DNA of 60,491 nucleotides, filler included, from Hausera hauseri (taxonomy: Eukaryota), in assembly GCA_046269625.1 (NCBI GenBank). It is 11 parts of 11 records of this genome, joined end to end, with 100 filler letters (N's around TTAATTAATTAA, not from the genome) between each part and the next. Parts side by side here need not be neighbours in the genome. Positions count along the whole stretch, not along the records: positions 6,354 to 11,337 come from JBJURY010370704.1; 10 more parts are not named here. One strand, given 5' to 3'. Below are positions 2,951 through 46,682 of the stretch, piece after piece. The notes beneath the pieces are model-generated. The model did no database searches. It had not been told where the DNA came from and saw only the letters and a program-made list of their open reading frames with translations. A program made the position numbers and the translations under genes. The stretch's first letter is position 1. Each line of letters starts with the position of its first letter.

Positions 2951-3914
2951 AGCTAGACTATTCTAATTAACAGCATAAGCATGTATCACAAAATATACCT
3001 TGTTGCAAAGTACGTAATAAACATATATTAATATCCGTTTGTGAAATATATGAATATTCTTCATTAATTAATACATGTAAGTTCTGATGTATGGTGGCAA
3101 GTGAAAACATGGTCTTTGAATGTTTAATTTTTGATTTCATAACGACCTGCACATCAGAACAACATTCTGCAACTATTATCAAGTGATACAATAAAAATAA
3201 TTTATACATAACCCACCCTATTCTATATATCGAAATGCCTTCGTGTTTTTGCTTATGTTAAACCCCCTGACGGATGTCTCCACCATTCCTGTAAAATGTA
3301 GATTATTGTTATTCAAGGAGGCAAAGTAATCAATTCATCAAATTTTCACCCGAGAATATTAGAATTATTGTCTCTTCATCTCTCAGATTTCCATTCATTT
3401 TATCCCATTTTATTTGGAACAAACATCAATAAAGCGTATCATAGAAATGCACAGGCGCCAATTTTGTATGAAGTATAGCACAAAAATCAAATAACCTATT
3501 CAAAATCGAATATATTTCTCTCGATTAATTAATAAATCAACACTGCATTAATTAAGTAAAAGTACAAGTCACAGAAGGATGGCCAAGATTTTAAAAATCA
3601 GAATTACCATACGGCCGGTGCCATTAACTAAAGCAACGGGGTCACCCGAATTCTGGAGAAGAAGCCCCAACTGCCGTCTAAAACTGTCGAAATCATCAAC
3701 TGTGTCAATCATACGCCGAATCACTCGCCGAATTTCTAAAAGACCAATGCCTTTCTAGAAACTGGATTTTTTCTTTGCAAAAGCAGATTTAAAAAATCAA
3801 ATATAAAAAAGAAAATATACACAATCTCGAGATATAAAAAAATTGCATAATATAGAAATACATGTGCCGCCGAGTCAATGCTTTTATATAAAGAATAAAC
3901 TTTAATCAATTTTA

Positions 3915-4870
3915 AATTTTCCAATTTGTTCAATAACTTTTTGTCAACTGTCTGGCAACTTCATGATTCCACGTTCATAAAACTTCTGATCCTTATCAAC
4001 AAAAGATTGAACCAAATGCGAATTTAGGTCATCATCATTAGTGTATATTTTACCATTCCATAAGTTTTACAAACTTCGAAATGAATGATAATCAGATGGC
4101 GCTGGATCAGGACACTATGGGGATGTAACATCGTTTCCCAATCTAGCTCCAATAATTTTACATGAGTTGTAAAGATGTATGAGGCCTCGCATTGTCTTGG
4201 TGGAACATGATTCCTTTGTGACTTGCCAAGTCTGGGCATTTCTCTTTGATTGCTTGCTCCAATTTCATTAATTGTTGACAATAAACATCTGAGTTTATCG
4301 TCTTGCTCTTTGGAAGTAGATCACAATACACAATACATTTGTAATTCCACCAAACTGACAGCATGATCTTTTTTGATACAATTCAGCTTTCAATGTGTTT
4401 TGTGCTGATTCATCACACTAGATCACGATCCGTTTTTCATCGACAGTGATGATTCACTTCAAAAAAGATCGCTACGTCAAATGGATCTCTTTGAAATTAT
4501 GCGGAATCCAAATGTCGAGCTTCTTAATAAATTCAATACATTTTAACTGATTTTCAATAGTTGTATGTGATACATATAACCTTTCTGCAATCTCTCGAAA
4601 AATTATTCAACGGTCTCTTTTAATCATAGCTCTGATTTGATCATCATCAACTTCAGTAGGTGGACCAGAACGTTGAACAACCTTGAGTGAGAAATCTCCA
4701 GACTGAAATATTTTATACCAATTTTGACACGGGCGTTTTGTTATACAATTAACACCATAAACGTCACATAGTCCATGTTTAAGTTGACGTTACACACAAT
4801 TTGTTTCTAACGTAAATTGCATTCTTTGAATAAATTGCATCATTTTGTTTTCTGTTCACATTTTAACTAC
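3915..4870 (-). mobile_element. Degenerate mariner transposase (mellifera-like)
   Basis: Motifs MLSVWWNYKCIVYCDLLP..TINSDVYCQQL, FHQDNARPH and GIMKLP..QKVIEQ, with multiple frameshifts. TIRs not identified. Confidence 0.85.
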
Positions 4871-6353: not shown

Positions 6354-6625
6354 TTTTCATCTAATAATTTTATTTGTGGGTCAGTACTCTGGATTACATT
6401 GCTTAAATCTGTTTGTTTAGACAGGTTTTGTTTCGGCATAATTATCTCAACTGGTGGTTGTATATCTGCTCGAATGGTTTCATAAGGATAATAGTACATA
6501 AGTATTATGTATCTGTATGTCCGTCCGTAATTTAATTCGCAACATTTCTTGTAGATTCCATAATCAAATTCACAATCTTTTATTTTCTCGCTATTTTGAT
6601 CGGTAAATTTTATTCGAATTCTCAT
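6354..6625 (-). CDS. Cys-containing accessory ORF downstream of Gypsy pol (partial)
   Basis: Starts 4 nt after the pol stop (MRIRIKF..DCEFDYGIYKKCCELNY) and runs off the contig. May be a frameshifted continuation of the post-integrase extension. Confidence 0.4.
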
Positions 6626-6628
6626 ATA

Positions 6629-9600
6629 TTATCTAGTAGCCTTATTAGTCTTGAACCAGATACATGGTTTCTTCCAGTCTGCGTCGTAAGCTTTCATTGT
6701 TTTAAGGTTTTCTACGTCTTTTCTTCCTTCCATAAGTCGTTGATCTTCCTTGATTTTTGCTTCTCCTGCATTCTTTTTGATTCCGTATACATCTGCTAAA
6801 CTAGATTCATCGTGCCACCATTGAGTCTTAGTCTTTGGAATATAAGAGGCGATTAATGATAATGCTAAAATTATCTGTACATTGGATACTGGTCTATTAA
6901 CTATAGCAGAGGTTTTTATTTTCTTATTTTGACTCGGGTTTAAATTCTGATCCTTAGATCGTAAATTATAATGCTTATTTGGTTTTATTTCTGTTTTGAC
7001 AACTCTCTGTATGGATACTACTTCTTCTTTTCCGCTTTTATTGATATATACGGTAGTTGGTGTAGTTCGGACAACCTCGTAGGGTCCTCTTCCAGTGCGA
7101 GTAAGTTTCAGGGACGTACCTTTCTTTGCTACTGGGTAGTGTACGTAAACCCAATCTCCTTTTTCTAAATCATGAGGTTTGGCTTTCTTATCATATTGTT
7201 TCTTGAACTGTTCTTGATATTCGAGGGTTAGTGTTTTCGCTATATCCCAGCACTTTTGTAATCTTGTTTGTAAAACTTCCGCGAAGTTAGGTTCTAAATC
7301 TTCCGGGTTTGCCTGATACGGAGTCATTCCTATGTCCGTAGGTAATATTGCTTCGCGTCCGTACATCATAAAGAATGGCGTAAATCCTGTGGCTGGGTGT
7401 GGGGTTGTATTGATAGCAAATTGCGTTCCTTCTAGGAATTCATCCCAATCCTTTTGATCCTTTGCGACCACTGTCGATAAGACTCGTATAACGGTTGCGT
7501 TCATACGTTCGACCATTCCGTTACATTGAGGGTGATATGCGGTCGTAGTTAATCGTTCGATTTCGAAAATTTTAGTAATCTTATCAAATAACTCGCTCGT
7601 AAAGTTTCTTCCTCGGTCAGTCAAGATTTGATCGGGAGGTCCATATCTGCAAATGATTTTTCTTACTACTGCATCTGCTAGAGTTTCTGCTTTCTGATCA
7701 ACTAGTGCTACTAATTCAACGAAATGTGTTAATCGATCTACACACGTCAAGATATATTTGTTGTTTTTATGGGTTGTAGGTAGTGGTCCTACTATATCCA
7801 TGGACATAGCCTGCATAGGCCTATCTGGCACGTTGATTGGTTTTAATTCGGCTATATAATTTTTCACTTTCTTTTGTTTCGTTGCACAAACTTCACATGC
7901 ATCTATCCAGTTTTTCACGCCGATATAGATACTAGGCCAATAATATTTATTCAATATTCTCTCCAATGTCTTTTTCCATGACATGTGTCCAGCTAAGTAA
8001 GAATCGTGTTCAGCCATTAATACTTCTGTTCGTAATCCTTTCGGAATGACTACAAGTTTCCGTCCTTTTCGTTCGTAATACAAAATATTATCTTGGTCTG
8101 ATGCATAGTATTTGTGTCCGTGCCTTTGTAGATGTTTCTTCAGCTGGCGTCCTTTTGGCTTTTCGTCTTGTTCGGCAAATTTGACTATCTGTTGAATAAC
8201 TTTATCTTTGGCTTGTTCTGAAGATATTTTGATCGTTTTATTCAGTGTCAAGGTACGCTGTCGTTCCACCAATTCTTCAAGTTGAGCTTTCTTCATTGTC
8301 GTAATAGTGCTTGTTTTTGTCTTAAGCCTTGATAAAGCATCTGCGTCAATATGCTTACTTCCGGGCTTATATTGAAATTCGATGTTGTACCGTGATATTT
8401 CTTCGATCCAACGGTTTAGTCTACACGTTGGGTTATTAGCTCGTCCTTTCAACGTTGTGACAGCCTTGTGATCGGTTACTATAATAATTTTCTGTCCGTA
8501 GACGTATACGTTGAAGTGTCTTAAGGCTTCTTTCACAGCTAATGTTTCTAGTTCGGTAACTGAATAGTTTTTCTCTGCTTTCTTAAGTGATCGTCCCCCG
8601 TATGCAATTGGATGTTCTAATTCTTCATCTTCTCGTTTTTGGGCCAATTCGTAGCCGATTCCTTCTTTGCTTGCGTCTGTTTTAATTATAAATGGTAAGT
8701 TGAAATCGGGATATCTTAATACTGGCTCGCTTGTTAAAATTTTCTTCATTTCATCGAATGCCTTTTGTTCCACATCGGTCCATTTCCATTTAATTCCCTT
8801 TTTTAATAATCGGTATAATGGCGCATTAATTTTCGAATTGTCCGGTACATAGGTGGCGTAATATCCGCATAATCCTAGCCAGTGTCTCAGTTCTTTCTGA
8901 TTTTGAGGCTCCATACAGTCCGATATTTTATTTAATAGAGATTTATCTGGTTTCGATCCTCCTTCTCCGACTATATGTCCGAGGTAAGATACGGCATTTT
9001 GTGCCCATTTACATTTCTTAGGATTTAATTTCAACCCCGCTTGCTCTAGTCGCATAAGAGTGTCTTCAATATCTTTTACATGTTCCTCTTCAGTTTTCGA
9101 CGCTATCATTACGTCATCTAAATACGCGAATGCGTGATCAAGTCCCATTAACATTTTATTCATCATCCTGGTAAATATAGCTGGGCCGGTTGTTATGCCA
9201 AATGGCATGACATTAAATTCATAGACTCCATCATGTGTTTTAAACGCTGTTTTATAACGATCATCTTCTTCGATTTCTACCTGCCAATAACCGGATTGTA
9301 AGTCCAGTGTGGTAAACCATCTTGCTCCTGACAGTCTATCTAATGCTTCCTTCACAGATGGTAGTGGAAATGAATCTTTCATCATCAGAGTATTTAGGGC
9401 TCTATAATCTATGCAAAATCGGTGTTTGGTAGTATCTTTCTTTTTAACCATCAATATGGGTGAATACCATGACCGGTAACTTGGCCGTATTATGTCGGCC
9501 TTCAGCATACGTTCTACTTCGGCAGTAATCTCCGGTCTTAATGAATGAGGTGGCGGGTACCATTTAGGCATTTTCTGTTCCTCTAAATCAATTTCCTCAT

Positions 9601-9907
9601 TGGAGCCAGGTTTCTTTTTTAGCGGTATTGTTAATCTCAGAGCCTTTGCTCGGCCTATGTCTTCTTCATTTTGGGCAATAATCGACTTGTATTTGCACAA
9701 AAGTTCGTAAAATTGACAATATACTTCTGGCGAAAATTTAGTTTCAACGTGAGGTGGAAATTCAGCATATTTGTATGGTTTCTCTTCGATCGTTATTGCT
9801 GATACTTTATAAGTGTGGCCCAATGTGGTATTGGCGTACAACTTTATGGGGGTCGGCGCATTATTTACCAACCTAATAGGGACTCGTCCTGTTGTTACTC
9901 TTGTCAA
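6629..9907 (-). CDS. pol: Ty3/Gypsy Pol (RT-RNaseH-integrase-GPY/F) with C-terminal hydrophobic extension; family A copy 1
   Basis: RT: RFCIDYRALN, LDLQSGYWQ, YLDD. RNaseH: TDAS..ELE..TDH. Integrase: HHCC (H..H..CEVC), DDE (SMDIVG, LTDRG, MVERMN), GPY. Uninterrupted 1092-aa ORF. Confidence 0.97.
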   Translation of the reverse strand: MTRVTTGRVPIRLVNNAPTPIKLYANTTLGHTYKVSAITIEEKPYKYAEFPPHVETKFSPEVYCQFYELLCKYKSIIAQNEEDIGRAKALRLTIPLKKKPGSNEEIDLEEQKMPKWYPPPHSLRPEITAEVERMLKADIIRPSYRSWYSPILMVKKKDTTKHRFCIDYRALNTLMMKDSFPLPSVKEALDRLSGARWFTTLDLQSGYWQVEIEEDDRYKTAFKTHDGVYEFNVMPFGITTGPAIFTRMMNKMLMGLDHAFAYLDDVMIASKTEEEHVKDIEDTLMRLEQAGLKLNPKKCKWAQNAVSYLGHIVGEGGSKPDKSLLNKISDCMEPQNQKELRHWLGLCGYYATYVPDNSKINAPLYRLLKKGIKWKWTDVEQKAFDEMKKILTSEPVLRYPDFNLPFIIKTDASKEGIGYELAQKREDEELEHPIAYGGRSLKKAEKNYSVTELETLAVKEALRHFNVYVYGQKIIIVTDHKAVTTLKGRANNPTCRLNRWIEEISRYNIEFQYKPGSKHIDADALSRLKTKTSTITTMKKAQLEELVERQRTLTLNKTIKISSEQAKDKVIQQIVKFAEQDEKPKGRQLKKHLQRHGHKYYASDQDNILYYERKGRKLVVIPKGLRTEVLMAEHDSYLAGHMSWKKTLERILNKYYWPSIYIGVKNWIDACEVCATKQKKVKNYIAELKPINVPDRPMQAMSMDIVGPLPTTHKNNKYILTCVDRLTHFVELVALVDQKAETLADAVVRKIICRYGPPDQILTDRGRNFTSELFDKITKIFEIERLTTTAYHPQCNGMVERMNATVIRVLSTVVAKDQKDWDEFLEGTQFAINTTPHPATGFTPFFMMYGREAILPTDIGMTPYQANPEDLEPNFAEVLQTRLQKCWDIAKTLTLEYQEQFKKQYDKKAKPHDLEKGDWVYVHYPVAKKGTSLKLTRTGRGPYEVVRTTPTTVYINKSGKEEVVSIQRVVKTEIKPNKHYNLRSKDQNLNPSQNKKIKTSAIVNRPVSNVQIILALSLIASYIPKTKTQWWHDESSLADVYGIKKNAGEAKIKEDQRLMEGRKDVENLKTMKAYDADWKKPCIWFKTNKATR

Positions 9908-11337
9908 AATATTACTGAGGATAATATTTGGATTAATGTCTTCTTGTGGCTCAAAAATACCGGTTGTTCGTCCTCTTCTAGAATTTGAGCGTAAATTAAC
10001 ATTTCAGTTCGCGGAGGTATGTTTTCGTCAACGGGAATCCATACTTCTCCTAATTTCCTTTCTTTCATTGTTTTAACTCCTTTTGCTGGTCCAAGTTCAA
10101 TCAATTTTCCAGTCTGTAAATTTATTGCAATGCTGGGTAGCTGTTTCAATATATCACAGCCTAATACTACATAATCGGTTAGCTGATCCATTATAGCAAA
10201 CTCGTGCTTAAGGGTTTGATCCATTAGATGAACTATGGGACTCCATTTAAATTTTGGCTTGGATTCTTGTCCGAAAGCTCCTATACTACTTGGATCTGAT
10301 GAGGATGCTGGTTGCAACTGTTTTCGTAATGTCGGCGGTATTGATTCTAGCTTGATAAATGATTTTTCCGAGCCTGTGTCCACTAAGGCATAAACTTCCC
10401 AGTCCTCAATGGTAACTTTTGTAAAGGGTCTTCCTTCCACAACTGTCCCGTAACAATTTGATACAGCTTTGGGGCGTCTAATCGTAGAAATCTTATGTCC
10501 GTTTATCGTTATTTCTGGTGATGAGACAATATTTTCGGTTAATTGCTTCAGTTCCTCGTTTGGGTATAAGTCGTTACTTACTATGGCGTTTTCATTGTTC
10601 CTGATTAATGGTTCTTGAATTCTTGAGTTTGGAAACGATCTCACTTGAGTTTCCCAGATCGTCGATTTGGATTTTATATTGCGAGGTATTCTTGATGAAT
10701 ATATTATTCCATGATCATCTTCTGCTCGTCGTTGGTTAGTAATTTGCATTTTCTTTAATACTCCATATTGTTTTGTTCCTTCATAAGGGTCTTCGAAACG
10801 GAAGGGTTCTTGGCAGAAGGCTGATCTATAAGACATAGTAGAAAATTTGTCACAATCTTCGTATATTGGGGCCGTCGGTGGCATGATAGGTATTGGTGCT
10901 GAGTACATTTTGTATCTATTTTGTAAAGGAAGCGCTTCTCCTCCCTCAGGCTCGTCATCATCTGAGCCATTTCTTCTAATTATCGTTTTCTTAGTTTTAC
11001 GTTTTGATAGAAAGAAAGGTCTTGACCGGCGTTTGTAATTGTGGTAGCCAACATGTCGTTCTACATCATTTTTCCATCGGTTTTCTTCGTAGGCCTTAAG
11101 CATTTTACCGAAGGGTGTGATAATTGCAGTTAAAATTTTGCAAGAAAATCCTGTTAGCGTAAATATTTCGTATCCATTTATAATCGCCTGAATTACGGCC
11201 TTTACTAATTGCACCATAAAATAGATTGCTAAGAATCCCGATGCGGCTTGTCCGAAAATTAAAAATCTTCCCCAAATTTTGTAGAGTATTTCCGTAGTTA
11301 CTCGTTGATAGTGATTTACTCCTAACAATGATTCCCA
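9904..11337 (-). CDS. Chuvirus-like glycoprotein C-terminus (TM) fused in frame to linker and retropepsin protease (5'-truncated)
   Basis: WGRFLIFGQAASGFLAIYFMVQLVKAVIQAIINGYEIF aligns with the C-terminus of the glycoprotein at 25145-25417. The same ORF contains the aspartic protease motif ALVDTGSEKSFI..VVLGCDIL. A 1-nt shift in a T-run near 9955 separates it from RT. Confidence 0.85.
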   Translation of the reverse strand, partial: WESLLGVNHYQRVTTEILYKIWGRFLIFGQAASGFLAIYFMVQLVKAVIQAIINGYEIFTLTGFSCKILTAIITPFGKMLKAYEENRWKNDVERHVGYHNYKRRSRPFFLSKRKTKKTIIRRNGSDDDEPEGGEALPLQNRYKMYSAPIPIMPPTAPIYEDCDKFSTMSYRSAFCQEPFRFEDPYEGTKQYGVLKKMQITNQRRAEDDHGIIYSSRIPRNIKSKSTIWETQVRSFPNSRIQEPLIRNNENAIVSNDLYPNEELKQLTENIVSSPEITINGHKISTIRRPKAVSNCYGTVVEGRPFTKVTIEDWEVYALVDTGSEKSFIKLESIPPTLRKQLQPASSSDPSSIGAFGQESKPKFKWSPIVHLMDQTLKHEFAIMDQLTDYVVLGCDILKQLPSIAINLQTGKLIELGPAKGVKTMKERKLGEVWIPVDENIPPRTEMLIYAQILEEDEQPVFLSHKKTLIQILSSVIF

Positions 11338-12285: not shown

Positions 12286-13572
12286 TTAGGTTGGCAACTA
12301 AGTAACTGCCGATTTAACACATAAATATCTGTGACTATCTTTTTTAAAGACTTCTGTCAATGTTATGATATTTTCCTTCTGACAATTGTTAGCCGTGACT
12401 CTTACCCTGCATTACAATCAAATTTGGCATATTTTTGTTTAAATTTGTCAACTTGGTGTCAATTTTAATATGGAGTGCAGAAACGAGCATTTTTGCCAAA
12501 TTTTACATTTTTATTTCCATAAAGGAAAGAACGCAGCGTAAGCAGCTAAAAGGTTATGTGATGTGTATGGTAAGGAAGCCTTAAAAGAAAGACAGTGCCG
12601 AAATTGGTTTAACAAATTTTGTTCTGGAGATTTTTCTCTCAAAGATGACCAACGTTCAGGTCGACCAGTTGAGCTTGATGATGACCGAATCAAAGTTATA
12701 ATCGAGTCGGATCGTCGTGGGACTGTGCGAGAGATTGCAGAGAGGTTGAATGTATCACATACATCGATTGAGAAACATTTAAAACATCTTCAACTCGCTA
12801 AAAAGCTTGATATGTGGATTCCACATGAATTGAAAGAAATTCATTTAACGAAGCGCATCAACGCTTGCGATTTGCATCTTAAACGAAATGAAGTCGATCC
12901 TTTTTTGAAACGAATTATCACTGACGGTGAAAAATGGATTGTTTGCGATAACGTCAATCGAAAAAAATCATGGTCCAGGCGTGATGAGCCACCGCAAACC
13001 ACTTCGAAAGCTGATATCCACCAAAAGAAGATTTTGTTGTAAATTTGGTAGGATTGGAAAGATGTGGTGTATTTTGAGCTGTTTCCAAGGAACCAAACGA
13101 TCGATACAAATATGTACTGTCAACAACTGGACAAATTAAATGCAGCGATCAACGAAAAACGGCCAGAAATTGTCAATCGCAAAGGTGTCACTTTCCATCA
13201 GGATAATGCTAGACCACACGTATCTTTGGTTACTCATCAAAAATTGATAGACCTTGATTACGAATTGATGTTACATCCACTATATAGTCCTGATCTAGCA
13301 CCATCATGTTACTATTTATTCCGATCTTTGCATAATTTCTTGAATGATAAAACTTTTGATAATTAGGACGCTGTGAAATCGCACTTGGTTCAGTTTTTTG
13401 CTGATAACGACCAGAAGTTCAACGAGTGTGGAATCATGAAGTTGCCAGAAAGATGGCAAAAGGTCATCGAACAAAATGGAACATATATCGTTGATTATGT
13501 TTCATTGCAAATATAAAAATAAAATCTTTTGTTTGTATGAAAAAATTGGCAATTACTTAGTTGCCAACCTAA
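12286..13572 (+). mobile_element. Full-length (1287 bp) mariner, mellifera subfamily, inactivated transposase
   Basis: About 30-bp TIRs (TTAGGTTGGCAACTAAGTAACTGCCGATTT / AAATTGGCAATTACTTAGTTGCCAACCTAA) with TA on the left. Motifs WIPHEL, FHQDNARPH, HPLYSPDLAPS, with in-frame stops. Confidence 0.95.
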
Positions 13573-16108
13573 CATATCTCGAGATCTCTTCAATCCATCT
13601 ATTCAACCTACACGTAGGGTTCTTTGCTCGTCCCTTTAAAGTTGTAACTGCCTTGTGATCGGTAACTATTATTATCTTCTGTCCATATACGTAAACGTTA
13701 AAATGCCTTAAGGCTTCCTTTACTGCTAACGTTTCTAGTTTTGTCACTGAATAGTTTTTCTCTGCTTTCTTCAGGGAGCGTCCTCCATAAGCGATTGGGT
13801 GTTCTAGTTTTTCATCTTTGCGTTTCTGTGCCAATTCATATCCGATACCTTCTTTACTTGCGTCTGTTTTAATAATAAACGGTAAGCTAAAGTCAGGATA
13901 TCTCAGTACCGGTTCGCTAGTTAGTATCTTCTTCATTTCGTCGAACGCCTTTTGTTCAATCTCGGTCCATCTCCATTTCATTTCCTTTTTTAGTAATCGG
14001 TATAACGGTGCATTAATGTTTGAGTTATCTGGTACGTAAGTGGCATAATAACCACATAGACCTAACCAATGTCTTCGTTCCTTTTTGTTCTGAGGTTCCA
14101 TACAGTCTGAAATTTTATTCAGTAATGATTTGTCAGGCTTAGATCCTCCTTCGCCAACTGTATGGCCAAGATATGACACGGCGTTTTGGGCCCATTTGTA
14201 TTTTTTGGGTATAGTTTTAACCCAGCTTGTTCTAATCTCATAAGAGTGTCCTCAATATCCTTCAGATGCTCCTTTTCGTCTTTTGATGCAATCATTACGT
14301 CATCGAAGTACGCAAATGCATAGCTGGTCCAGTGGTAATTCTAAACGGCATAACGTTAAATTCGTATACGCCATCATGAGTTTTAAACGCAGTTTTATAA
14401 CGATCTTCGTCTTCAATCTCTACTTGCCAATACCCGGATTGTAAGTCCAGAGTAGTAAACTATTTTACTCCTGAGAGTCTGTCCAAAGCTTCTTTTACAG
14501 GTGGTAGGAGAAAAATCCTTCATCATAAGAATATTCAACGCTCTATAATTGATACAAGATCGATGTTTCGTGGTTTCTTTCTTCTTGACCATTAGAATAG
14601 GTGAATACCAAGATCTGAAACTTGGTCAAATTATATCGGCCTTTAACATACGTTCTACCCCTTTAGTTATTTCCGGTCTTAGGGAATGCGGCGGCGGATA
14701 CCATTTTGGCAATTTCTGTTCCTCGAGATCGATTTCATCATTAGATCCGGGCTTTTTCTTAAGTGGTATAGTTAATTTTAACGTCTTTGCTCGGCCAATG
14801 TCTTCTTCGTCTTTTGCAATAATTGACTTATAGCGACATAATAGTTCGTAAAACTGGCAATAAGCTTCTGGCGAAAACTTCGTATCGACGTGTGGTGGAA
14901 ATTCGGCGTACATATACAGTTCCTATTCAACCGTTATTGCTGATGCTTTGTAAGTATGTCCTAGAGTAGTGTTAGCATATAATTTTACTGGAGTTTGAGC
15001 ATTATTCACTATTTTTACCGGTATTCGACCTGATGCTACTCGGGTCAATATTTTGCTCAGTATTATATTCGGGTTTAGCGTTTTTTTGGCTCGAAATATA
15101 CTGGTAAATCTTCGTCTTGACAGATTTGTGCAAAGATCAATAATTTCGTTCTAGGCGGAATGTTTTCGTTGACTGGAATCAAGACTTTTCCGGATTCTCT
15201 TTATTTACCTTAGTTCCTTTTATCGGTCCGAGCTCGATTAGCTTCGAGGTATTCAGATCTATCGCGACGTTTGGCAGACGTCTTAATACATCATATCCTA
15301 ATACTACGTCGTCTGTTAAGTGTTCCATTATAGAAAATTCATGTTGAAATGTCTGTCCCATTATTTTAAGAGTAGGATTCTACTCGAATTTCGGTCTTGA
15401 TTCTTGTCCGAAAGCTCCTATACTTCCGGGATCGGTTGTAAGTGGTAGTCGTAATTGATTGCGCAACGTTTTCGGTATCGATACGTCTTTTATGAATGAT
15501 TTCTCTGATCCGGTATCTACTAATGCGTATACTTCCCAATCGTCAATAAACAATTTGGCGAAGGGTCTACCTTCTTTTATCTTAGGTTGTTTAACGACTA
15601 ATATTTTGTACCCGTTCACGCTAATTTCTGGTGATTTATTCTGGGCTACTTGTCTTAATTTTTCAATGGGATACAATCCATTATTTACACTGTTTTCGTT
15701 GTTTCTATCCGGCGTATTGATTAGCGGTTCTTGGTTGTTTTGGTTATGGAAGGATTGCATTCGTGGATTATCCCATATTAATGATTCAGTTTCTATATTC
15801 CGCGAAATCCTTGGAAAGTATGTTACCTTGCGATCATCTGCCGGTTGGCGGCATAATTCGGATTTTTCCCTGGTTCGGTACATTTTCCGTAACACGCCGT
15901 ATTGTTTTGTCCCTTCATAGGGATCTTCATAACTGAAAGGCTTTCGATATATTTCCGAACTATAGGAGTTAATAGATCTCTTATCGCTGTCTACATATTG
16001 TCGTGCCAAAGGGGGTAGCATCTGTAAAGGCGGCCTAAGCGCCTTCCGATTGCTTATCTTGGAGACCGCGTCTCCTCCCTTAGGCTCATCATCATCCGAA
16101 TCGTTTTT
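13573..16108 (-). pseudogene. Gypsy family A copy 2: linker-protease-RT-RNaseH, frameshifted, cut by the mariner
   Basis: Near-identical peptides to 6629-11337 (ALVDTGSEKSFI, KWYPPPHSLRPEI, TDASKEGIG). Homology stops at EEISRY, at the mariner TIR. Confidence 0.93.
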
Positions 16109-16640: not shown

Positions 16641-18330
16641 TCAGACGTATCCATATGCTGTGCCAACTTAGCAGAGTTCTCATAAATGTCCTCCGTGTAG
16701 ATGTGATAGATAAAACTATCAGTATCCATATACATCAGCTGTATGTACTTGAATATGGGGACCATGATGTCATAGTGGAATTTGTACATCAAGGTCGTTG
16801 ACAGGTCCAGTATTGCCATACCCACATATGTGGGCTTGTTGAATTGCAAGGATGTTTTTGGCATATGGATGCTGACTACGTTCTCCGCATATATGGTGCT
16901 GCTGTGGAAGTTTGGCTTGGCAATGAGCTTCTTTACCCGCTTTCATTCAGAGACCAGTTCGATGTAGATCCTGTTGCGGATGTTTTCCATGATCTTGCCA
17001 AAACGCAGTTGTTGTAAAGCTTGAATTGATCCTTCTCAAAGTCGTTCTTGGCATTTTTTCGCAGCTTCGTATTAAGACCGATATATGGCTTCAGCCAGTT
17101 GGACTGGCTGAACTTCAGGGCCCGATGGATCTTAGTAATGCGGAGTCCATTGCTGACAGCTTGCTGGAGATTTATGTAATGGACTACATATCACTCCCTA
17201 TTATCCAGATGGCAAGGCAGCTTTCTATGCTTTCCATGGAGCGGAGACTTTCTCTCAGGGAGGAAAGGCAGCTGTTGATGCCTTGTGTGGATAGAAGCCG
17301 GATATTCCATATCCACCTCTAGTATGAAGCCAGGTCCAGTATAGGTATGTTTTCAGGATGCTCGACCCACTTGAAGTCATAATATGGCAATGGGACGCCC
17401 ATTACCCATCCATACAAGTCGTTGGCATCCAGGTATGATATATATGAGTATTCCTTGTATGGATCATACTAGGCCATATACTTGTTGTTGGCCTCACTAT
17501 ACCTATGAATGGCCTGGCATATTCCGCCTCTAATGTCTCTCTCAATCATGAGGATCATGTCGTAATTTTTTATGATCTGCATTCTAATACCGATATAGCG
17601 CAGAATAGCTGCTCAACTCATCCCTGGAGCCGTGAAGGAATGAGCTGAATCCAATGCATTGCTCTTTATCGTAACATCCTTAAAGCTGTCAAAAAGATTC
17701 GTCAGAAGCAGCACGTCCGTCTAGAGGTATATATAGCTGTATTCTCCTCATTTTCGGCATTGGAATGCATACCAGATGTTCTAAGCATGCTGGTAGTCCT
17801 CATCACTGATACCGCTATCTGAGAAGATATTGTAAAAGTCCTTCTTGGCCGGCAATGAGGTCTCGTCCAGTGTTCCCCATGATGTTATATAGTCATAGGG
17901 AAACACGCCTTTCTTTTAGCAAGGTCAAATGTAGTGGGGAAGAACCGCTTCGTCTCCTTGAGTTCATCTGCAGGGAGGTTCTTCACTAAACTGTCCAGTG
18001 AAAACGACAGGAAACGAAAGCTCTCTATGAATCGAAGTTTAATGCGGTCCACATAATTAGTGTAAGTGATATATTTCTCCACAATGTTTTGTATCACATC
18101 TATATTACCATCAATGTTGCCTAATTCACGGATTATTAAATGGGAATCATAGCCACTGAGATTATGGAACACTACAGGCACATACGTACATGTTTTGCAA
18201 CCTAGATTGCAGTTGTTTCATGCTGCCCCTCCATATGCACCTGTAAAATGGCAGTGATCCTTGACTTTATAATTATCCTCGGTGAAGGACTTGTCGCACA
18301 AGTAACATGCTGTTGCCTTGTGCTATTCTT
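16641..18330 (-). pseudogene. Polinton/adintovirus PolB, degraded
   Basis: PVVFHNLSGYDSH (exonuclease), YLDANDLYGW (motif A), YMDTDS (motif C), with many frameshifts. Confidence 0.9.
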
Positions 18331-19880
18331 ACTCTTGAAGTAATGATTAAACGTTTGTCGTTATATTTGAAGAATGTAGCCGCTGATGCTTATAACGAGC
18401 TTCCTAACGATGAAAAGAAATCTTGGTCATCCTTGGTAGGAGGATTGAACCGAAAATTATTGCCGACAGTAACATCGCAACAGAACTTATGGCATTTAGA
18501 AATAGGGTGAAACAGAAGGGTGAATAGATAACACAGTTTGCATTTGCATTAAAGAAACTAGCTAATGGTTATATGAGCACCTTGAGAATAGCTAATGTAG
18601 CAAAAACTAAAACCGAAGCTGAACGCGAACTCGCAGAAAAAGCAACTCCGTCAGATTTTGACATCATGATGGCGACGCATTTAATTAATGGTATTTGGTC
18701 CCGAGATTTAGTGAAACAGTTGATTTTGGCCAGACCTGAGAATTTTGAAAGGACTTTACAACTGCCCCAAGACTTAGAAATGGCACTTGATAGATATGAC
18801 AGACATAATGATAGAAATGATAGAAATAATAATCGAAATGGTCGTAACGATAAAAATCGCAATGATAATCGCGGAAGACATGATACACGATTTAAAAGTA
18901 ATAGAAATGATGAAAATAAAAACAGTAATAACGACTATGGGAATAGTCGAAACAATAATTATGTTATCGATCGAAATATGAATAAGTTGAATCCCAATTC
19001 GGATAGAAATCGAGGAAACTACAAAGGTTCTAATTATCAAAATCGTTACGATGATAATCAAAATAATGATAGTCGACGAAATATAGATAGTACGCAAAGT
19101 TTGCCGAACCGGTACAATAGAAGCACAAATATGTCTAAGTCACCTATTAATGAAGGCGGTAGACAGAGAGTCAACAGAAATGGAAATTTAGTTTGTTTCA
19201 CTTGCAGTAAGAAGGACATATTGCAATGTCATGTCCAAACCCGCGTAGCCTAATAAGACTAGTATGATCAACGTTAACGAGAACTTAGAAGCGAAATATG
19301 GTGTTCATGGAGATACAGGTACTATTATCGACATACACGATTTGCGAAAATTTCTAGACGCTTAGCCTGAGACTACTAATCCACAAATTCTGATGGCCAG
19401 AAGAGAGTACGGAGATAAACTAAGATTATTAGAGGTCTACCACGGTTTAGCCGAACCAGAAACAGAATACGAGCATGCTATAGCACCCAAGCTAATCGAT
19501 ATGACAGGGAAGAAGAGTATTCCAATAATTAATAAAACGGTAGAAAAACAAGGAACTTTGACATAAGTCGACTTAGATGCAGAGCCTGAGTTCACAATTG
19601 ATAAAGCAAAAGAGTATCGAAGACGATATAGCCAAAAAAGAATTTATGGAACCATTAATACTTAAAATTACGAAAAGTAGAGGCCATAGCTCTTGACTTA
19701 AGTCGAAACGTAGAATTCTTTCATTATCTCAAGTAACTAAAGAAAAATTAGAAGAAGTAAAAGATATTAAAATCGCTGTAGAAAGAGACGCAAGACCTAG
19801 TTTAGACACACCACGAATTGGTTTAAACCCATCGAGTTGGACAAGACCGTAAAGTCGATTAACGAAATTAATGAGGACAA
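18328..19880 (+). pseudogene. gag: Gypsy gag fragment (same family as 37665-39056)
   Basis: EVMIKRLSLYLKNVAADAYNEL..WSSL, an N/D/R-rich tract and the knuckle VCFTCSK.GH, colinear with the gag of contig 8. Confidence 0.88.
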
Positions 19881-20764: not shown

Positions 20765-23700
20765 ATGCCGTGTAATTCTTTACGTAACTTAGTAAGCAGT
20801 CGTATTTTTGTAATTCGAGATCCCTTTCTTAGTCACGCCAAGGGATTAACTGAATCCCTATTAAGTATTGTTTTGACAATGGTTTTGACACATAAAAGTT
20901 TACACATCTTGTAGGTAACATTAAATTTTATACTGCTCAATAAATAATCTTCGGCTATAGCTAAGGGTGTCGTATTTTAGCTTGCTGTATTTCTGTTTCT
21001 GTCATTTTGGTCAAAGCGCCTGGTGCTAGTATACAAATTAAAAGGAGAAAATACTTTATTAACCATAATATTTTGTTACTTGAGATCCTCGCAATTTTTT
21101 TCTCTACCATACTGCTAACATATCCCTGTTCATCATTCCTTAGTTTACTTTCTTTAGCCGCCGGTTTACATATATTAACATGAACTTTAAGTGTCGTATT
21201 ATTCTTTTTAAGGCTTATGTTGGGTACGTCTACCTTTTCCACTTCATACGGTCCTTTATATGGTCTATCTAGCTTTGATGTCTTGTCCTTTTGCTTAAGG
21301 GTGTGTATAACATCATTTTATCTCCTGGTTTTATTTTGGATTGCTTCGTTTTTTCACCATAATACTTCTTATGTTTTGTTTTATAATCTTTCTGATTATC
21401 CTTTACTATTTTGTAAGCTAACTGGAGTCTTTCTTGCATCAGTTGCTTGTACTCTTCTATTTCCATTAAATGAGAAGTAGGATTTACATTGAAATCCAAA
21501 TAAATTGGTAGTCTGGCATCTCTTAGATACATCAGGTAAAAAGGTGTCTCTTTTGTGGCTTCGTGTACTGACGTTCGGTTTACGAATACACAGGCACTGA
21601 TATATTTATCCTAGTCATCTTGTCTGGTATTGACAACTGTTTGTAGTTTACTTTTTAGGTCTCCAATATATCGTTCTACCATTCCGTTATTCTCAGGGTG
21701 TCCTGGTGTCGATCGTAATTTTAATATTCGCATAATGTCATAAATAGCTTGCATTACGTTTCCCGTCAAGTTTGATGCTTGATCCGTTAATAATATTCTT
21801 GGGTCTCCATAATTAAATATTATATTCTCCACGAATTTTTCGGCGATATTTCCCACCTTAATGTCCTGAATAGGTAATGCTACAACCCATCGTGTAAAAT
21901 AATCTAAAAATACTAGAATATATTTATTTTCGTTTGTAGTTAGTGGTAAGGGTCCGATTGTATCCATTGCTGTGAATTCGAAGGGGACTGGTGGGTTATC
22001 CCATACTTTTAAAGGGGCTTTGAATTTAGATCCGGTATTCTTTCGTGTGGCACATAGTTTACAGTTGTCACACCATTCCTGCGTATGTTTTATCATGGAT
22101 GGCCAAAAATATTTCCTTTTTAATTTATTAGTTGTCTTTCTTGATGATTGAAGCCGACCTAGTAGCCCGTCGTGATACTGTGTTAACAATATTGCTCTAT
22201 TTTTCTTGGAAATTACAAGGGCTAGTCCATTCTGATGAATGTAGTATAGAAATTCTTCTTTTTCTTCATATGCTTCGCCGAATCTGGCTAGGTGACGCGC
22301 AAGCCCTTTATCTGTAGGAATAATTCTGTTTTGCATAAAACTTCTGATAGCTTGTATCTCAATATCTTCCTCTTGATTTTCTTTTATCTTTTCTGGTGAT
22401 CCGTCCATACTCCATACTGCTGCTACTATAGCTTTATTCGTGTTTGATTTTTCTGGCATTCTCGATAGATAATCGGCATTCGCATTATGTGTTCCCGGTT
22501 TATATTGGAAATTTATAGTATATGGTTGCAATTTGAGAGCCCATCTTAATAATCGGCTATTTGGATTGTCGTGTTCTTTTAACCATTGCAATGGACGATG
22601 GTCAGTGTATATTACTAACGGTTTGTTTTCACTGATATAAGGTGAAAATATATTTAAAGCGAATATTACTGCAAATAATTCCTTTTCAATTGTTGCGTAT
22701 TTCTTTTGATGCTTGTTTAGCTTTTTCGATGCATATGCTACTGGATGTTCCTTTCCATCCTCGCATTTCTGTGATAATACTGCTCCCACTCCATAATCAC
22801 TTGCGTCTGTAGCTAATATGAATGGTTTATTCATGTCTGGATAAATTAGAATGGGGGCACTCAACAATTTTTCCTTAAGCATTTCAAATGAATTCTAACA
22901 TTCACTTGTCTATATTACCTGTTCTAAGTCTTTACAAAGTAGTTCATATAGCGGTTTGGCTATTTTACTGAAATCTTTAATAAATCTACGGTAATAATTT
23001 GCCAATCCTAAGAATCTTCGCAACTCTTTAACTGTAGTTGGCTTTGGGAAGTATTTAATTTTTGCAATTAATTTCTCTTGCGGCTTAACCCCATTTCTGT
23101 CTATCCTATGTCCCAGAAAGTTGACTTCTTGAGCAACTTAACATTTCTTGGGATTTATTTTGAGTCCCATTATTTCACATCTATCGAACAGATCCTGTAG
23201 ATCTTTTAGATGTTGTTCGAAATTTAAGGATGCAATTATTACGTCATCAATATATACCATCACATGTAATGCGTCCAGTAATAATAATTCAGTTCCTCTC
23301 TGAAACGTAGGTGGTCCGTTATTTAATCCGAAAGGCATTCTGTTAAACTCCCATAATTCTTCGCCTATGGAAAAAGCTGTCTTTTGTTTGTCTTCTTCCT
23401 TCACTTGTACTTGCCAATATTCTTTCTGTAAATAAATAATTGTAAATATTGTAGATCCATGTAATTTATCTAATATTTCATCTATGCTTGGTAACAGATA
23501 CGTGTCGGTTTCGGTAATTTCATTGAGAGCTCTATAGTCGATACAAAATCTCATTGCTCCACCTTTTTTCTTTACCATTACTACTGGGGCAGTCCATGGA
23601 GAACAGCTTGGTCGTATTATTTTATTATCGCTCATTTCTTTTATAATTTTCCGGGATTCTTCCTTCTTATCATACGCGAAGCGATAAGGCCGTTTCTTTT

Positions 23701-24829
23701 TTGGTTTATCTTGTCCGTTTTTTAGTTTAATAGAATGTTGTATAACATTCATAACTCCTAAGTCATAATCATTTTGTGCAAAGTGATCATTATTTTTTAT
23801 TAGGAGTTGTTGTAACTTAGTCTTTTCCTCGCCTGTCAAAACTTTACAGTCCTTTAGTTTCTCATCCCAATTGATAATACTAGTTTTACCTTTTGTCGCC
23901 CCTTTGTTCGTTGCGTTATTTAATTTAGCTTCCATCATTTTTTCAATTGTATCTACTTCTGAGATGACAGAATTAGTGCCTTCCCTAAAACTTTCTAGCG
24001 TATCTTCTGCTATTATTACACATCCCATTCTGGTATTCCTTCTTAGTTTCATTTCATTTCGTCCCGTGTTGCAAATCCGTAGATGGATTTTCCCGTTTCT
24101 TATTCTGTCTATATGAGGTGCTATGAGTATCTCATACTTTTCCATGGTTACTAGGGATGGTTCGAAGTATACGTTTTTACCAATAGATTTGCCTTCTATT
24201 TTTCCAGATACTACCATTTCAGAACGAGGTGGCATTACAATGTCCTTTGTCAATGACACTGCTCCATTATGCTGTTTCGTATTGAATCTTCTTATCTGAC
24301 CTGTACTTAAGTCGATGTAGGCATCTTCTAACTGATTCAGGACATCACATCCAATTAATATTTCATTTGTTAAACGTTTTGCCACAATTACAGTATGGTT
24401 AATTACTTGATTGCATATTTTAATTTTGGCATCGAGGACTGTCCTTATTTGTTCTTCAGTGCCAAATGCTGCGACGTTTATTAACGTCTCGGAAGGTTTT
24501 TTTAGTTTCTTTACTAATTCCGGGGGCAACTGGTTTCTTCCCATTATTGTGGTTGTAGATCCCGTGTTTATTAGAGCGATCATTGGGTACCCATTTATGT
24601 CAATCATTATTTCCGGCCTTGTTGATGACTGTTTTTCATAATCCTCACTTATTTTACAAGTGGTATCGCGATTATAGGGCATCGGGTTTTCGTCATAATT
24701 ATGTTTCATCCTTAATACTTGGTATATTGGGTACATTTCTTTCTGATCTGGAAGGTATTTTTGCTCTGGCGTTATTGATTCCATAAATCGGGGTGACGAT
24801 CCCGTATATTGGGGTGCTGTTGGAATCAT
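20765..24829 (-). pseudogene. pol: Gypsy family B pol (PR-RT-RNaseH-IN-GPY + hydrophobic extension) with nonsense mutations
   Basis: ALINTGS (protease, D>N), RFCIDYRALN, YIDD, ATDASDYG, AMDTIGPL, TDQA, MVERY. ORFs 23138-24829, 21611-22882 and 21269-21532 share one frame. Confidence 0.95.
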
Positions 24830-26639
24830 TACGGCTTGACAATTGTATTCATCGGCGAAATTTATTTTCGGTAATTGTGACAGTAATGTTTTCTTGTATT
24901 TTCGATTTCACGACGTCCATGAAACTCGCCTCAGTCTTTTTATATATTTATTGGTAGACTTACTTACATTTGGGGAAGTATTATTATTGTCATCCTCCTG
25001 TCCATTAAGCGTACTGTATGGTGAGTTATTCTCTAAATCTTTATTTTTGTCTTTGAGTATTCTTCTTTTTCATTTTGCGTCATGTCTTGCTAGAAAACAA
25101 CTATCTGCTGCTGGTATGAAGGCGATTAAACTTTTCCATGAGCATCAATCTGCTGCGTGGATCTCATAAGCTTTACTGAGAACTGTAAATATCGTTCGCA
25201 GTGTGCTAATTATGAAATATATAGCTAAAAATCCTGAGTCTCCTTTGCCAAAATATAAAAACTTTCCCCACATCTTTTCCACTACATTTCGAGTGACCTT
25301 TATAAGGTAATCTCGACCCATCAGATTTTCCCATTGTGGTGATCCTTCACCATCCCACATCACTTTTCTGGTTAATTCTGTTATTACTCGTTGTCGCTGT
25401 TGTGGAAATAACAGCATCCGTCTATATCTTCTAAATTCTGTTCGGTATAGATTTTTTCCTGGGGTATAACGGTAAGTGGTTCAAATTTATGATTTTTCTG
25501 TAAGTTTATTAAACTGAGTGTTTCGGGCGGTGTTACACGTTCCCGTTTCGGCATTCTTATCCATTGATCGTTTATCTTAAACATTGGCTACATATGTGCA
25601 ATTTATCAATAAGGTTGGCTTAACTTCAGCGTCTAAAAGAATTCTTGTTACTGGCATCACGTATCTTGGCTCGTTATTATAGTCCACCGGTAGTTCAGTC
25701 GTACATTCCGTAGTGGGTCTCAATTTAACTTCTACTTTCTTGCATTCTATTGTAATCAATACTTCACCCATAATCCTTCCAATTACTCCTTCGCCAAAGG
25801 GCATTACTGGTGCTACCATATCTGGATTAGTTATCACTACAGCCAGGTTATTCCTCATTATTTCGTAATTCAGCTTGCATTCGTTCATTATTATTTCTCT
25901 GTATAAACTTCTGATCTCTGTTCTTATCTAATTGATTAAGAAATCAATTTTGTTATCAAAATACTGCGTTAACTTTATATCCCTTTTATCTAATTTCATT
26001 CTGGCACCATGGATTTCTTTTAATGACAAATGTATGCCTTTGTAATTGGTTTTGGATATATCTTCATTACATTTTCTTATCGTTCCGGGAATTTTAAGTC
26101 ACATCATATCCTCAGGATTTTCTGAGTATAACACCGTAGCAACTTCCGTCATTCTTACGTCTTTTTGTCCTTCCTTAAAAGTAGCTGTTTCTTTTTCTGC
26201 TCTTTCCTACCGTTTTATTGAACTTTCCTTCTTTTAGTAACGTAAGATAGCATTTACCCATTGATACTTCCCACGTCATTTTAGATTCTCCGGTGTCGCA
26301 TTCGCCGTTTTCATACTCACATTCACTCATGGTAGTCATTATTTTGGTTTGGGAATCAAACAGTGCTTCATATTCTTTTAATTGGACTTGATAATCCTCA
26401 ATGGCAACTGTTCTTGGCGCGATAATACCTCCTACATCATAATTTATTCCAACATAATAGCCTTCACTAGATTTGTTAATCTTTCCAGCTATGAAAATTC
26501 GAGTGTATTTTATTTTATTCCGTACAGCTAGTATTTGAGCGTTTTGGACAGTGATCACTCCTATTTTAAATGCATCCTGACATTCAGCTCGTGAAATAAT
26601 TATCGGTTCGAACGGAGTTGTAGGCTCTACTATGGCAGA
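24830..26639 (-). pseudogene. env: Chuvirus/Jingchuvirales-type (class III, gB-like) fusion glycoprotein (env), upstream of protease
   Basis: Cys pattern and motifs typical of chuviral G: ISRAEC, CEYENGECDTGESKMTW, CKLNYEIMRNNLAVVITNPDMVA, GEVLITIECKKVEV..CTTELPV..PVTRIL, FKINDQW, IYT, LFPQQR, WGKFLYFG..GFLAIYF. Confidence 0.85.
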
Positions 26640-26900: not shown

Positions 26901-27074
26901 TTTGAAATAATGAAAGATTAATGCAAGTAAATGTCGCTCTGTATTGATTATTCAAAATTATCGATTTTATTGATCTAAGTTTTACTTGGTCTTAACATAT
27001 ATAATAGTTACATGGCCTTATCCCACATTACTTGATCAAAAAGACAACACGATATTTCTATACAACATTTATTG

Positions 27075-27119
27075 AACAAAGAATAACAAAGAATAACAAA
27101 GAATAACAAAGAATAACAA
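27075..27119. repeat. 10-bp tandem repeat (AACAAAGAAT) x~4.5 in the PolB 3' region
   Basis: Direct reading; the homologous region near 53965 has a single unit. Confidence 0.9.
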
Positions 27120-27130
27120 TGTGTACATAG

Positions 27131-30100
27131 TTACAATAATGCCACATGTCCATTAGGTAGTGTCTGAATTCCGTCTTCAAGAATGTGCCTCTTGTTATCG
27201 AACCAATCGAGACTTTTCTTCCGCAGCGCAACTGTAGCAATCTGATGTACCCGGGACTGGATCCTTTTCATATCGCTGACTATGTGACTTTGCTCCCGCA
27301 ACACTCTCAAAATCTCCAAAGCCATTGTCTTTAGCTAATGTTGCCCTTTGAACTCCCTTGGCTCGCTTCTTTACCTGACCACTTATATCGATGGCGTATA
27401 TTGTTTATCTCAATGCCACCAAACGGGTGATGATCTTCCCATTCACCTCGTTTTAGAACTTCCCGAGGACCATCTTGTTGGTTATTGAATAATTTGGATG
27501 ATCCTTCGGATAGTATGAGGTATCCATATACTGCGCCAATTTTGCATACTTTTCAAAGACATCATCTGTGTGGATCTGGTATATGAAACTGTCCGTATCT
27601 ATGTACATTAGCTGGAGCTACTTTAATGTAGGGGCCATGATGTTGTAATGAAAATCATACATCAATGTCTTGGATAGATCCAATATGGACATGCCCACAT
27701 ATATAGGCTTGTTAAACTCAAGTAATAGATGCTTACCAGGTTCTCTGTGTAGATTGTGCTGCTGTGGAAGTTGGGCTTAGCGATGAGTTTCTTTTCCCGC
27801 TTCCAGTCACATACCAGCTCAATGTTTATCCGGTTCCGAATGTTCTCCATAGTTTTGCCAAAGACCGAATTGTTGTAAAGTTTGAATTGGTCTTTTTCAA
27901 ACTCGTTCTCGGCATTGGCCCTCCATTGGGTATTGAGGTCTATGTATGGATTCAGCCATTTGGACTGGCTGAACTGTAGGGCCCGATGAATCCTGATGAC
28001 TTGGAGACCACTTTGGATGGCCTGTTGGAGATTTATGTAGTAGGATACATACCTTTCCCTGTTTTCAAGGTGACAGAGCAGCTTCTTATGCTTTCCATGG
28101 GGCAGAGACTTGCTCTCCGGCAGAAATCGCAGCTGCTCATGCCTTGTGAGGTATCTATATGGGTATTCTACATCCATCTTCAGTATATAGCCCGTATTTA
28201 CAGTGGGATTTAGGTCTAATATTTGGATGTCTTCAGGATTCTCGACCCATTTGAAGCTATCATAGGGCAATGGGTTACTCATTGTCCATCCATACAAGTT
28301 GTTGGCATCCAGATATGATATATATATGAGGATGCCTTTGATGGATCATAATCTTCTATGTATTTGTTGTTGGCCTCACTGTACCTGTAAATGGCCTGGC
28401 ATATTCACCCATGATGCTTCTTTCAACCATAAGGACCATATTGTAATCCTTCAATACCTGGAGCCTTATGCCGGTATAGCGCAGAATCGCTGCCCAGCTC
28501 ATTCCTGGAGCTGTAAAGAAATGGCCTGGATCTAATTTATGACTCTTAAGGATCACATTCCGGAAGCTGTCGAAGACATCTGTAAGCAGCAGAACATCTG
28601 TGAGGAGATAGATATCACTGTATTCCCTTATTTTCCTGCACTGGAAGGTTTGCCATACTCTTTGGGCATGCTATAATCAGCATCGCTAATATGACTGGAT
28701 GAAAACTGACTATAAAAATCCTGCTTGACCGGTAATACTTCTTCATGCAGTGTTTCCCATAATGTTATATAGTCATAGGGGAACACGCCTTTCTTCTTGT
28801 CGAGGTCAAATGCAGTGGGGAAGAACCTCTTCATCTTCTTGAGTTCTTTTGCAGGGAGGTTCTTCACTAAATAATCCAGTACAAAAACATGAAGCGGAAG
28901 CTCTCTATGAATCGAAGTCTAATGCGGCCCACATGCTTAGTGAAGGTAATATATTTTTCCTCACTGTTTGGAATGACATCAGTGTTCCACTCAATATTAC
29001 GCAGTTCCCGAACAATAAAGTAGGAGTCATAGCCACTGAGATTATGGAAAACTATAGGCACATATTTGCATGTTTTGCGACGTAAATTTCAGTTGTTGCA
29101 TGCTACACCTCGATATTTGCATGTAAAATGGCAATGATCTCTGACTTTATAATTATCCTTGGTGAAGGGCTTGTCGCACAAGTAACATGTTGTTGCCTTG
29201 CGCCACTCATCTTCTTGCTACTTCGACATGCTCATATTATCCTTATGCTGTTGAAGTATGTTTTCAAGTCCTTTCATGAAATGTGCTGCTGCACCTGGAC
29301 CTCTGAACAGAAATGGTTCATTGTTCAGTCCTTTGGCATACATACAATATGGTGAGAGTTCATGATATTGGTATGCTGTCGTGCTGCTATGTTGGAGATT
29401 AGGGCTGCAGCTGTGAACTGGGCTGAGAATGGCCTCAAAATCACAATAAACGACAATCGGCACCTTCTGCGTCTTCTCGAACTCCTTGAATTCCAGGTAA
29501 TCCTCCTTGGGGAATTCTGCTCGGATGCAATAGTTTGTATTACAGTAGGTCTTGTGTGTCACCAGCATTTCTGCGGCTGTGTCCCCATTAAAATGAGTAA
29601 AGTATCTCTTGCATATTTCCAGCCTTGATTTATGCTTGGATATTTGGGATTTTACGAGGTGCTCAAAATTCTTGATAAAAATAAAATGTCTGATTTCTCC
29701 ATCATCTAGCACGAGTATATCCCTGTGATCCTTCAATTTCTTCTTGCACATATGTAGTGGATAAAATTTGTCCTCCTCCAATCCGAAGATGTTGACTGAG
29801 ATGTTGTTCACGCTATTAAATTTCACGACTTCATCTAGGCTCAGCGGGAATGAAGTACAGCTGAAGTCGCATGTGTGCTGCACTTTGTCATATATTCAAA
29901 TTCGGAAAGCATTATGTTGATCCTGGACTAGTTTTGATAAAATGGCATACATGAAACACATATTGTCATTATTATGGACATTAACACATGTCCTTTCTTA
30001 ACTATTCACTCAGGAAGCAGTATGTAGGACCTGCCTCTCATGGGAGAATACTTGTGTACATGCACAAGTAATCTCTTTATTGTTGATAAAGTCCAACCAC

Positions 30101-31110: not shown

Positions 31111-31244
31111 CACCGTGTACTGCCCCGCTTATTGACTGGTTTTANNNNNNNNNNNNNNNNNNNNNNNNNNNNNNNNNNNNNNNNNNNNTTAATTAATTAA
31201 NNNNNNNNNNNNNNNNNNNNNNNNNNNNNNNNNNNNNNNNNNNN

Positions 31245-39432: not shown

Positions 39433-39450
39433 GTCCTGCTAGGGTCGCCA
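39433..39450 (-). promoter_or_regulatory. Primer-binding site (18 nt, probably tRNA-Arg)
   Basis: TGGCGACCCTAGCAGGAC lies 2 nt after the LTR CA end and is complementary to a tRNA 3' end ...GUCCUGCUAGGGUCGCCA. The tRNA identity is inferred. Confidence 0.8.
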
Positions 39451-39452
39451 AA

Positions 39453-46670: not shown

Positions 46671-46682
46671 CTATCGTAGAGT

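Follow-up and report, generated by a model that had tools for sequence, protein, structure and literature searches.

Comparison of two decayed Ty3/gypsy elements, families A and B, with long relatives gives good support for an architecture in which a gB-type fusogen precedes Pol and a second, membrane-anchored protein follows it. A single frame of these relatives contains Gag, a signal, the fusogen, an anchor, Pol, a second signal, repeats, a stalk, a second anchor and a tail. The second membrane glycoprotein is a clade-wide feature, and we infer that it serves in attachment next to the fusogen. The complete explanation, including this role in attachment or tropism, has in our judgement an even chance of being correct.

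The window analysed, a 60,491-nucleotide stretch from Hausera hauseri with a GC content of ~30–47% per kilobase, consists of 11 contigs joined via N44-spacer-N44, and as a result families A and B are both cut off. Both elements lie on the minus strand (family A on contig 6354–11337, family B on contig 20765–26639), are truncated by the contig ends and have broken reading frames. Both contigs start within env, with the gag region outside them; no LTR pair is present among the repeats listed for the window, and the element ends fall outside it. Pfam searches reveal the Ty3/gypsy pol order PR-RT-RH-IN in both families, with PF24664 (Monjiviricetes/gB-type, class III env) directly upstream of the protease and no ankyrin between env and protease in these copies. 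Ubl, BCL2, BIR, MATH or ankyrin cargo is found on none of the window contigs, where the upstream part of the elements is absent.

Family A begins inside the gB-type env, of which the contig retains the C-terminal part (11074–11337, minus; PF24664, E 3.5e-15), and the env membrane anchor is placed by hydropathy at about 11235–11179. The aspartic protease (10138–10434, minus; PF00077, E 1.1e-7) is in the env frame, and the break between this frame and that of the RT falls within the overlap at 9904–10003. RT, RNase H and integrase, up to the motif YNLRS, occupy 6956–10003 (minus; Pfam RVT_1, RT_RNaseH, Integrase_H2C2 and rve). Their frame (10003–6632) continues through GPY (starting at 7087), YNLRS (6970–6956) and a basic stretch into VQIILALSLIASYIP (6880–6836), followed by PKTKTQWW and Cys-containing sequence. 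An earlier note on this DNA had described Pol running past GPY into a basic and then a hydrophobic stretch in both families; the hydrophobic stretches could be located, at 6880–6836 in family A and 21074–21009 in family B, and the Cys-containing sequence that it mentioned for family A is indeed in frame. The stop codon of family A at 6631–6629, the five stops of family B and the truncation of both elements by contig ends were absent from that note.

The extension of family A can be divided into five segments, all on the minus strand. The basic spacer (6899–6955) is devoid of Met, so that no Met separates integrase from signal and the second protein has no start codon of its own in this copy. 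It is followed by the internal signal-peptide-like segment (6824–6898, hydrophobic core 6880–6836, putative cleavage position), a charged N-terminal segment (6710–6823) that in P0075 is predicted, with low confidence, to be helical, and a first Cys-containing, presumably β-sandwich (FN3-like) repeat (6425–6709), which is 40% identical to repeat 1 of P0075. The structure model of this repeat is all-beta with a pLDDT of 59.6, the evidence for FN3 coming from relatives. A linker towards a second repeat (6354–6424), aligned with P0075 up to residue 189, runs to the contig end. The hydrophobic stretch is the most hydrophobic of its 1124-aa frame, and shuffled surrounding residues reach its score in 52/5000 cases (13/5000 for that of family B). 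However, an RNase H strand of family B is as hydrophobic over 11 residues (2.66 versus 2.58); since a globular strand scores equally, hydrophobicity alone is not decisive and comparative evidence is needed.

Such evidence is provided by P0075. A word-index search with the family A extension gave 0 matches among 230 candidates, but when 133 of its residues were compared by full HMMER with 1.84 billion representatives, P0075 emerged as the sole match (E 2.4e-14). With the stop read as X, the alignment of the two sequences extends to the contig end and covers 184 aa at 42% identity (E 3e-47), and their signal cores are nearly identical. Because the homology runs on across the in-frame stop at 6631–6629, which lies inside repeat 1 and after which the frame is open again to 6354, the stop interrupts a longer gene. 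P0075 is a complete type I membrane protein of 479 aa, in which a signal-like core and a charged segment are followed by three Cys-containing repeats, then by a T-rich stretch and, at ~429–450, by an anchor that leads into a short basic tail. It is known as a protein alone, and its in-frame link to an integrase comes from family A of the window. P0075 by itself matched no PDB sequence and no meaningful Pfam family, fn3 being absent for both P0075 and the window extension; a global alignment of P0075 with full polyproteins was smeared across gag-env-pol and was discarded, unused for folding. The rest of the second protein was found by tblastn on no other window contig. A hydrophobic stretch arisen by chance as the 3′ sequence decayed would be in keeping with the in-frame stop of family A, the five of family B and the initially empty homology search, but the homology to P0075 beyond the stop refutes it for family A and leaves it only for the sequence after the segment of family B. 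Given also that the same layout recurs in 9/9 relatives, we regard this explanation as hardly credible.

In family B the gB-type env is in pieces, with stops and frame breaks, and is cut by the contig end (25085–26639, minus; PF24664 in three fragments, and tblastn with P0030 and P0032). The env tail, protease, RT, RNase H and integrase, likewise in pieces (21144–24907, minus; Pfam), are 40% identical to P0030 over 1117 columns. The signal-peptide-like segment, KILWLIKYFLLLICILAPGALT, occupies 21009–21074 (minus) and is reached by the alignment of P0030 residues 3508–3607 to 21293–21042. Decayed sequence (20765–21008, minus) with five stops in the signal frame fills the 244 nt to the contig end. 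Over 33 comparisons, its best in-frame scores against the second protein were reached by 13 and by 24 of 500 shuffles, and homology is only suggestive: comparisons with P0075 by BLASTP (E 3.6) and with the repeat profile (0.5 bits) were null, and a six-frame profile search of the window detected family A only. An eye-catching in-frame likeness to repeat 2 of P0075 was rejected as not significant. The proposal that an internal signal starts another protein is thus supported for family A, through its homology to P0075; for family B the signal-like segment alone is found and the downstream protein is unconfirmed.

PTAP motifs are present in the cytosolic env tails of family A (10878–10867) and family B (24823–24812), and LYPxxxL motifs in both copies of family A (10569–10549 and 15676–15656), all on the minus strand. 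These motifs resemble ESCRT late domains and are read as budding signals by analogy with retroviruses. The second family A copy (13556–16108, minus) is more decayed, shows 74% nucleotide identity and is cut in RNase H; it is adjoined by a mariner-type transposase (12542–13518), a related piece of which lies at 3882–4743. A gag ORF with a CCHC knuckle (39146–37668, in region 36794–41424, minus) matches the gag of long relatives (E 2.5e-17 to P0080) and has a related piece at 18320–19828 (plus). It is preceded by a RING-finger ORF (41081–40374) and followed by a charged ORF of 230 aa, and the region may represent the 5′ end of such an element plus an upstream accessory ORF. A third, unrelated gypsy element (33000–36693, minus) is heavily decayed, with gag-pol and no env seen. 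The window, rich in mobile elements, further contains a type B DNA polymerase (PF03175), which we take to be of Polinton/adintovirus type, in several decayed copies (16644–18337, 27019–31112 and 52759–57593), a stretch that resembles a capsid-type fragment by eye and lacks a Pfam match (46388–46888), and animal-type host genes at 43209–44832 and 49462–50928 (minus), encoding an NCBP1/CBP80-like MIF4G protein and plexin cytoplasmic domains.

Relatives were collected by an integrase search among proteins of 1968–5000 aa, where 2 of the 74 matches (P0030 and P0032) have PF24664 before pol, and by a search with the P0030 env among proteins of 2231–7100 aa, which gave 9 matches, itself included. 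Together these yield 10 distinct polyproteins; both searches could recover long uninterrupted frames only. P0077 stops short of RT, and the other nine reach integrase. All nine contain an in-frame basic-then-hydrophobic segment and an ectodomain of about 210–390 aa, their frame remaining open for 480–760 aa beyond GPY. A clear C-terminal anchor (KD15 at least 1.9) and a tail are observed in eight, P0083 having a weaker terminal hydrophobic stretch instead. The conserved downstream ORF expected in full-length copies is therefore present, and of the suggested secreted or surface protein the surface, membrane-anchored form stands (in P0075 and 8/9 relatives) and the secreted form does not. One to three FN3-like repeats make up the ectodomains, with Ig in one case, and an S/T-rich stalk is usually present. 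In 9 relatives env is continuous in frame with protease-pol; family A also has env and protease in frame, but the window copies of A and B are broken. Gag markers precede env in P0030, P0032, P0076 and P0077, and late-domain-like motifs occur in the env tails of 5/10 relatives. P0030, P0032 and P0076–P0082 have two or three protease-like domains, situated behind env, ahead of RT and behind integrase.

The signal segments have an uncharged hydrophobic core (15–27 residues being the expected length) in 12/12 cases and a net positive n-region in 11/12; small residues at −3/−1 were judged by eye, and an uncleaved anchor remains compatible with these sequences. As a control, the 66 of the 74 integrase-search matches with a GPY motif were used and the other 8 dropped. 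With a cut-off of 2.2, a hydrophobic window after GPY is present in 9/66, namely P0030, P0032 and 7 of the other 64, and 4 of these 7 have long membrane-protein-like tails. One of the 7, P0039, is a classical gag-pol-env element whose env opens with the same kind of internal signal after pol, which places the second protein in the classical env slot. Gag, pol (with a chromodomain) and the gB env of P0039 share one frame, and past env come another protease-like domain and a hydrophobic stretch. The hydrophobic segment might mainly tether Pol or integrase to the membrane at budding, with the ectodomain as passenger cargo, as its position is conserved and the sequence and repeat number of the ectodomain are not, and as integrase and segment are separated in 6/9 relatives by an additional protease-like domain with D[ST]G. 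A tether alone, however, would not need the open frame of all nine relatives with its repeat motif, Cys residues, anchor and tail, and we consider this explanation very unlikely.

A repeat profile built without P0075 finds the third repeat of P0075 with 22.5 bits, compared with a best score of 7.8 in 300 shuffles, and such leave-one-out profiles outscore shuffles for 7/9 proteins. The profile scores only 3.6 bits on the window repeat of family A and −0.7 bits on a host FN3 domain in P0060. At E ≤ 10, a 9-domain profile retrieves 45 PDB sequences (best E 0.012); going by their names, 38 of these bear FN3 domains. The folds nearest to the second ectodomain are FN3 domains of receptors and adhesion proteins. 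The 9-domain profile aligns with the FN3 chains at the tyrosine-corner segment before strand F. The tyrosine-corner motif L-x-P-x-T-x-Y or close variants occur in 16 repeat units, which were picked by that motif, and the motif is degenerate in the family A repeat of the window. As 0/9 domains match Pfam fn3 above the cut-off, the repeats are labelled FN3-like and not fn3. In P0083 the second protein opens with an Ig domain (residues 2673–2748; PF13927, E 1.5e-5) and not with an FN3-like repeat, which suggests module exchange. A second fusogen after the integrase was rejected, PF24664 being matched upstream of pol only in these elements; of the two envelope-type modules flanking pol in the earlier note, there remain the gB fusogen upstream and an FN3/Ig-like protein downstream. 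A complex prediction for the P0076 fusogen ectodomain and the second ectodomain scored 0.00 with the controls not folded and the alignment unused, and is neutral on binding.

Quick trees, comprising 7/9 relatives and 12–14 controls and no named Burro, Schmidtea or nematode sequence, place family A on one branch with the relatives (RT-RH-IN, SH-aLRT 96), and families A and B together likewise (RH-IN, SH-aLRT 97). In a careful RT-only tree family B groups with five relatives (84/93) and family A is unresolved. Within this group the second ectodomain diverges fast. In P0080/P0081 it is 57.5% identical, with env at 94.1% and RT at 94.3%, and in P0078/P0079 it is 40.7% identical, with env at 94.4% and RT at 87.9%; overall the two close pairs show 41–58% for the second ectodomain versus 81–98% for env/pol. 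Between families the values are 21–33%, which is near alignment noise, versus 39–68% for env. Judged from sequence, this would be the pattern expected of a host-interface protein. The family-specific hypervariability could also suit superinfection interference, in which the second protein would occupy the entry receptor and thereby shut out related elements; retroviral Env interference is a precedent. This alternative requires a receptor interaction that fits attachment equally well, and we consider it very unlikely.

The main alternative keeps a genuine type I membrane protein but places it on the surface of the expressing cell and not on the particle, where it would serve as an adhesion factor in cell-to-cell spread or as a cytokine-receptor-like decoy that modulates the host. 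Host-manipulating cargo does occur in the same polyprotein, with ubiquitin/SUMO-like (PF11976) and ankyrin domains in P0030 and ankyrin and Bcl-2-like domains (the latter at E 0.0015, below the cut-off) in P0077, as it does in Burro in the available text of PMC6431247. The nearest folds are those of receptors and adhesion proteins, the second protein of P0083 opens with an Ig domain, and YxxPhi-like motifs are present in the tails of 6/9 relatives. On the other hand, a single frame shared with Gag and fusogen in 9/9 suits a structural protein, and the stalk-plus-anchor layout fits a spike, neither being exclusive. We regard the cell-surface role as rather unlikely.

We favour a particle protein. 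In the proposed mechanism one long frame would encode Gag, a signal, the gB-type fusogen with its anchor, protease-RT-RNase H-integrase, a second signal and the second type I membrane glycoprotein. By established ER topology rules this polyprotein would thread the ER membrane, leaving the two ectodomains in the lumen and Gag and Pol in the cytosol. Signal peptidase would free both ectodomains and the element's protease would free Pol. The second protein would then enter budding particles with the fusogen, with which the PTAP motifs of both window env tails are consistent, and would act as a variable attachment or tropism factor while gB performs fusion.

Two-glycoprotein entry is well established in herpesviruses (gB with gD/gH-gL) and paramyxoviruses (F with H/HN/G), and Atlas viruses have a phlebovirus-like envelope. 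The entry systems with two glycoproteins pair a fusogen with a second surface glycoprotein, as here, by analogy and not by membership. Unlike in those systems, both proteins here belong to a single retroelement polyprotein, one on either side of pol, and the fusogen's partner is FN3/Ig-like, without detected homology to the proteins of those systems. The abstract of Sacco et al. 2022 reportedly mentions extra small ORFs in nematode ERVs, and its findings may overlap with those on the second protein. Gag-env-pro-pol ERVs of nematodes also have env before pol, as cited in PMC13524379, but the nematode env rows shown there look unlike the present envs by eye.

Families A and B and their relatives resemble a known kind of element, the planarian Burro and the GAG-ENV-POL errantiviruses. 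As described in the consulted parts of PMC6431247, Burro/GYPSM1 is a planarian giant gypsy element with a single giant polyprotein, in which an env akin to mononegavirus glycoproteins stands in frame after gag and ahead of the protease; its Ubi2/SUMO-like (PF11976), BCL2-like and ankyrin cargo is like that of P0030 and P0077. Burro measures 25–30 kb; the likeness to it rests on layout and, in the relatives P0030 and P0077, on cargo. This account names no post-integrase membrane protein in the same parts, 'transmembrane' appearing once, on Terminons. The GAG-ENV-POL HSV/gB-type errantiviruses of Platyhelminthes_C1a (PMC13524379, in the portions available) agree with them in gene order and in the type of env. 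YQE, a motif invariant in the relatives, opens all 6 Schmidtea Platyhelminthes_C1a env rows shown in supplement 2 of that paper, and downstream env motifs agree with the Schmidtea rows when compared by eye and motif search, without alignment. Together with the Burro-like cargo of P0030 and P0077, this makes flatworms the probable hosts. In its main text, as far as available, 'fibronectin', 'immunoglobulin' and 'Burro' do not occur, and chromodomains alone are discussed after the integrase. The sORF2 of the MDG1 group, in the available text of PMC11952523, is also an extra transmembrane protein serving retrotransposon spread, but is a short fusogen of env-less elements, whereas here a large ectodomain protein occurs besides env. 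The literature covered, which includes few subscription journals and some sources in part, holds no description of a post-integrase FN3/Ig membrane protein in these elements. The env-before-pol layout is thus already known, and the second membrane glycoprotein after the integrase appears undescribed.

For env-bearing gypsy elements outside insects, movement between cells and the choice of target cells are so far matters of hypothesis: in the parts consulted, the provirus idea of PMC6431247 is put forward as such, and the catalogue of PMC13524379 covers env only. The closest described relatives are abundant in Schmidtea, with 45 and 215 intact copies in two families (PMC13524379, same parts), and Burro1 RNAi has already been used there (PMC8532177, available text), which makes the idea of the second protein directly testable. 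The placement of enzymes between two membrane proteins is a polyprotein layout unusual for a retroelement. A second surface protein, conserved in place yet fast-changing, is a concrete candidate for the specificity factor, and a separate variable protein of this kind would account for the fusogen staying 94% conserved. It is possible, though in our view somewhat short of probable, that these elements form an invertebrate ERV lineage with a two-component entry machine. One polyprotein would then supply both a class III fusogen, which is conserved, and a separate FN3/Ig protein for receptor binding, which is hypervariable and swappable, with Pol held between two membrane anchors; exchange of the second protein would set cell or host tropism.
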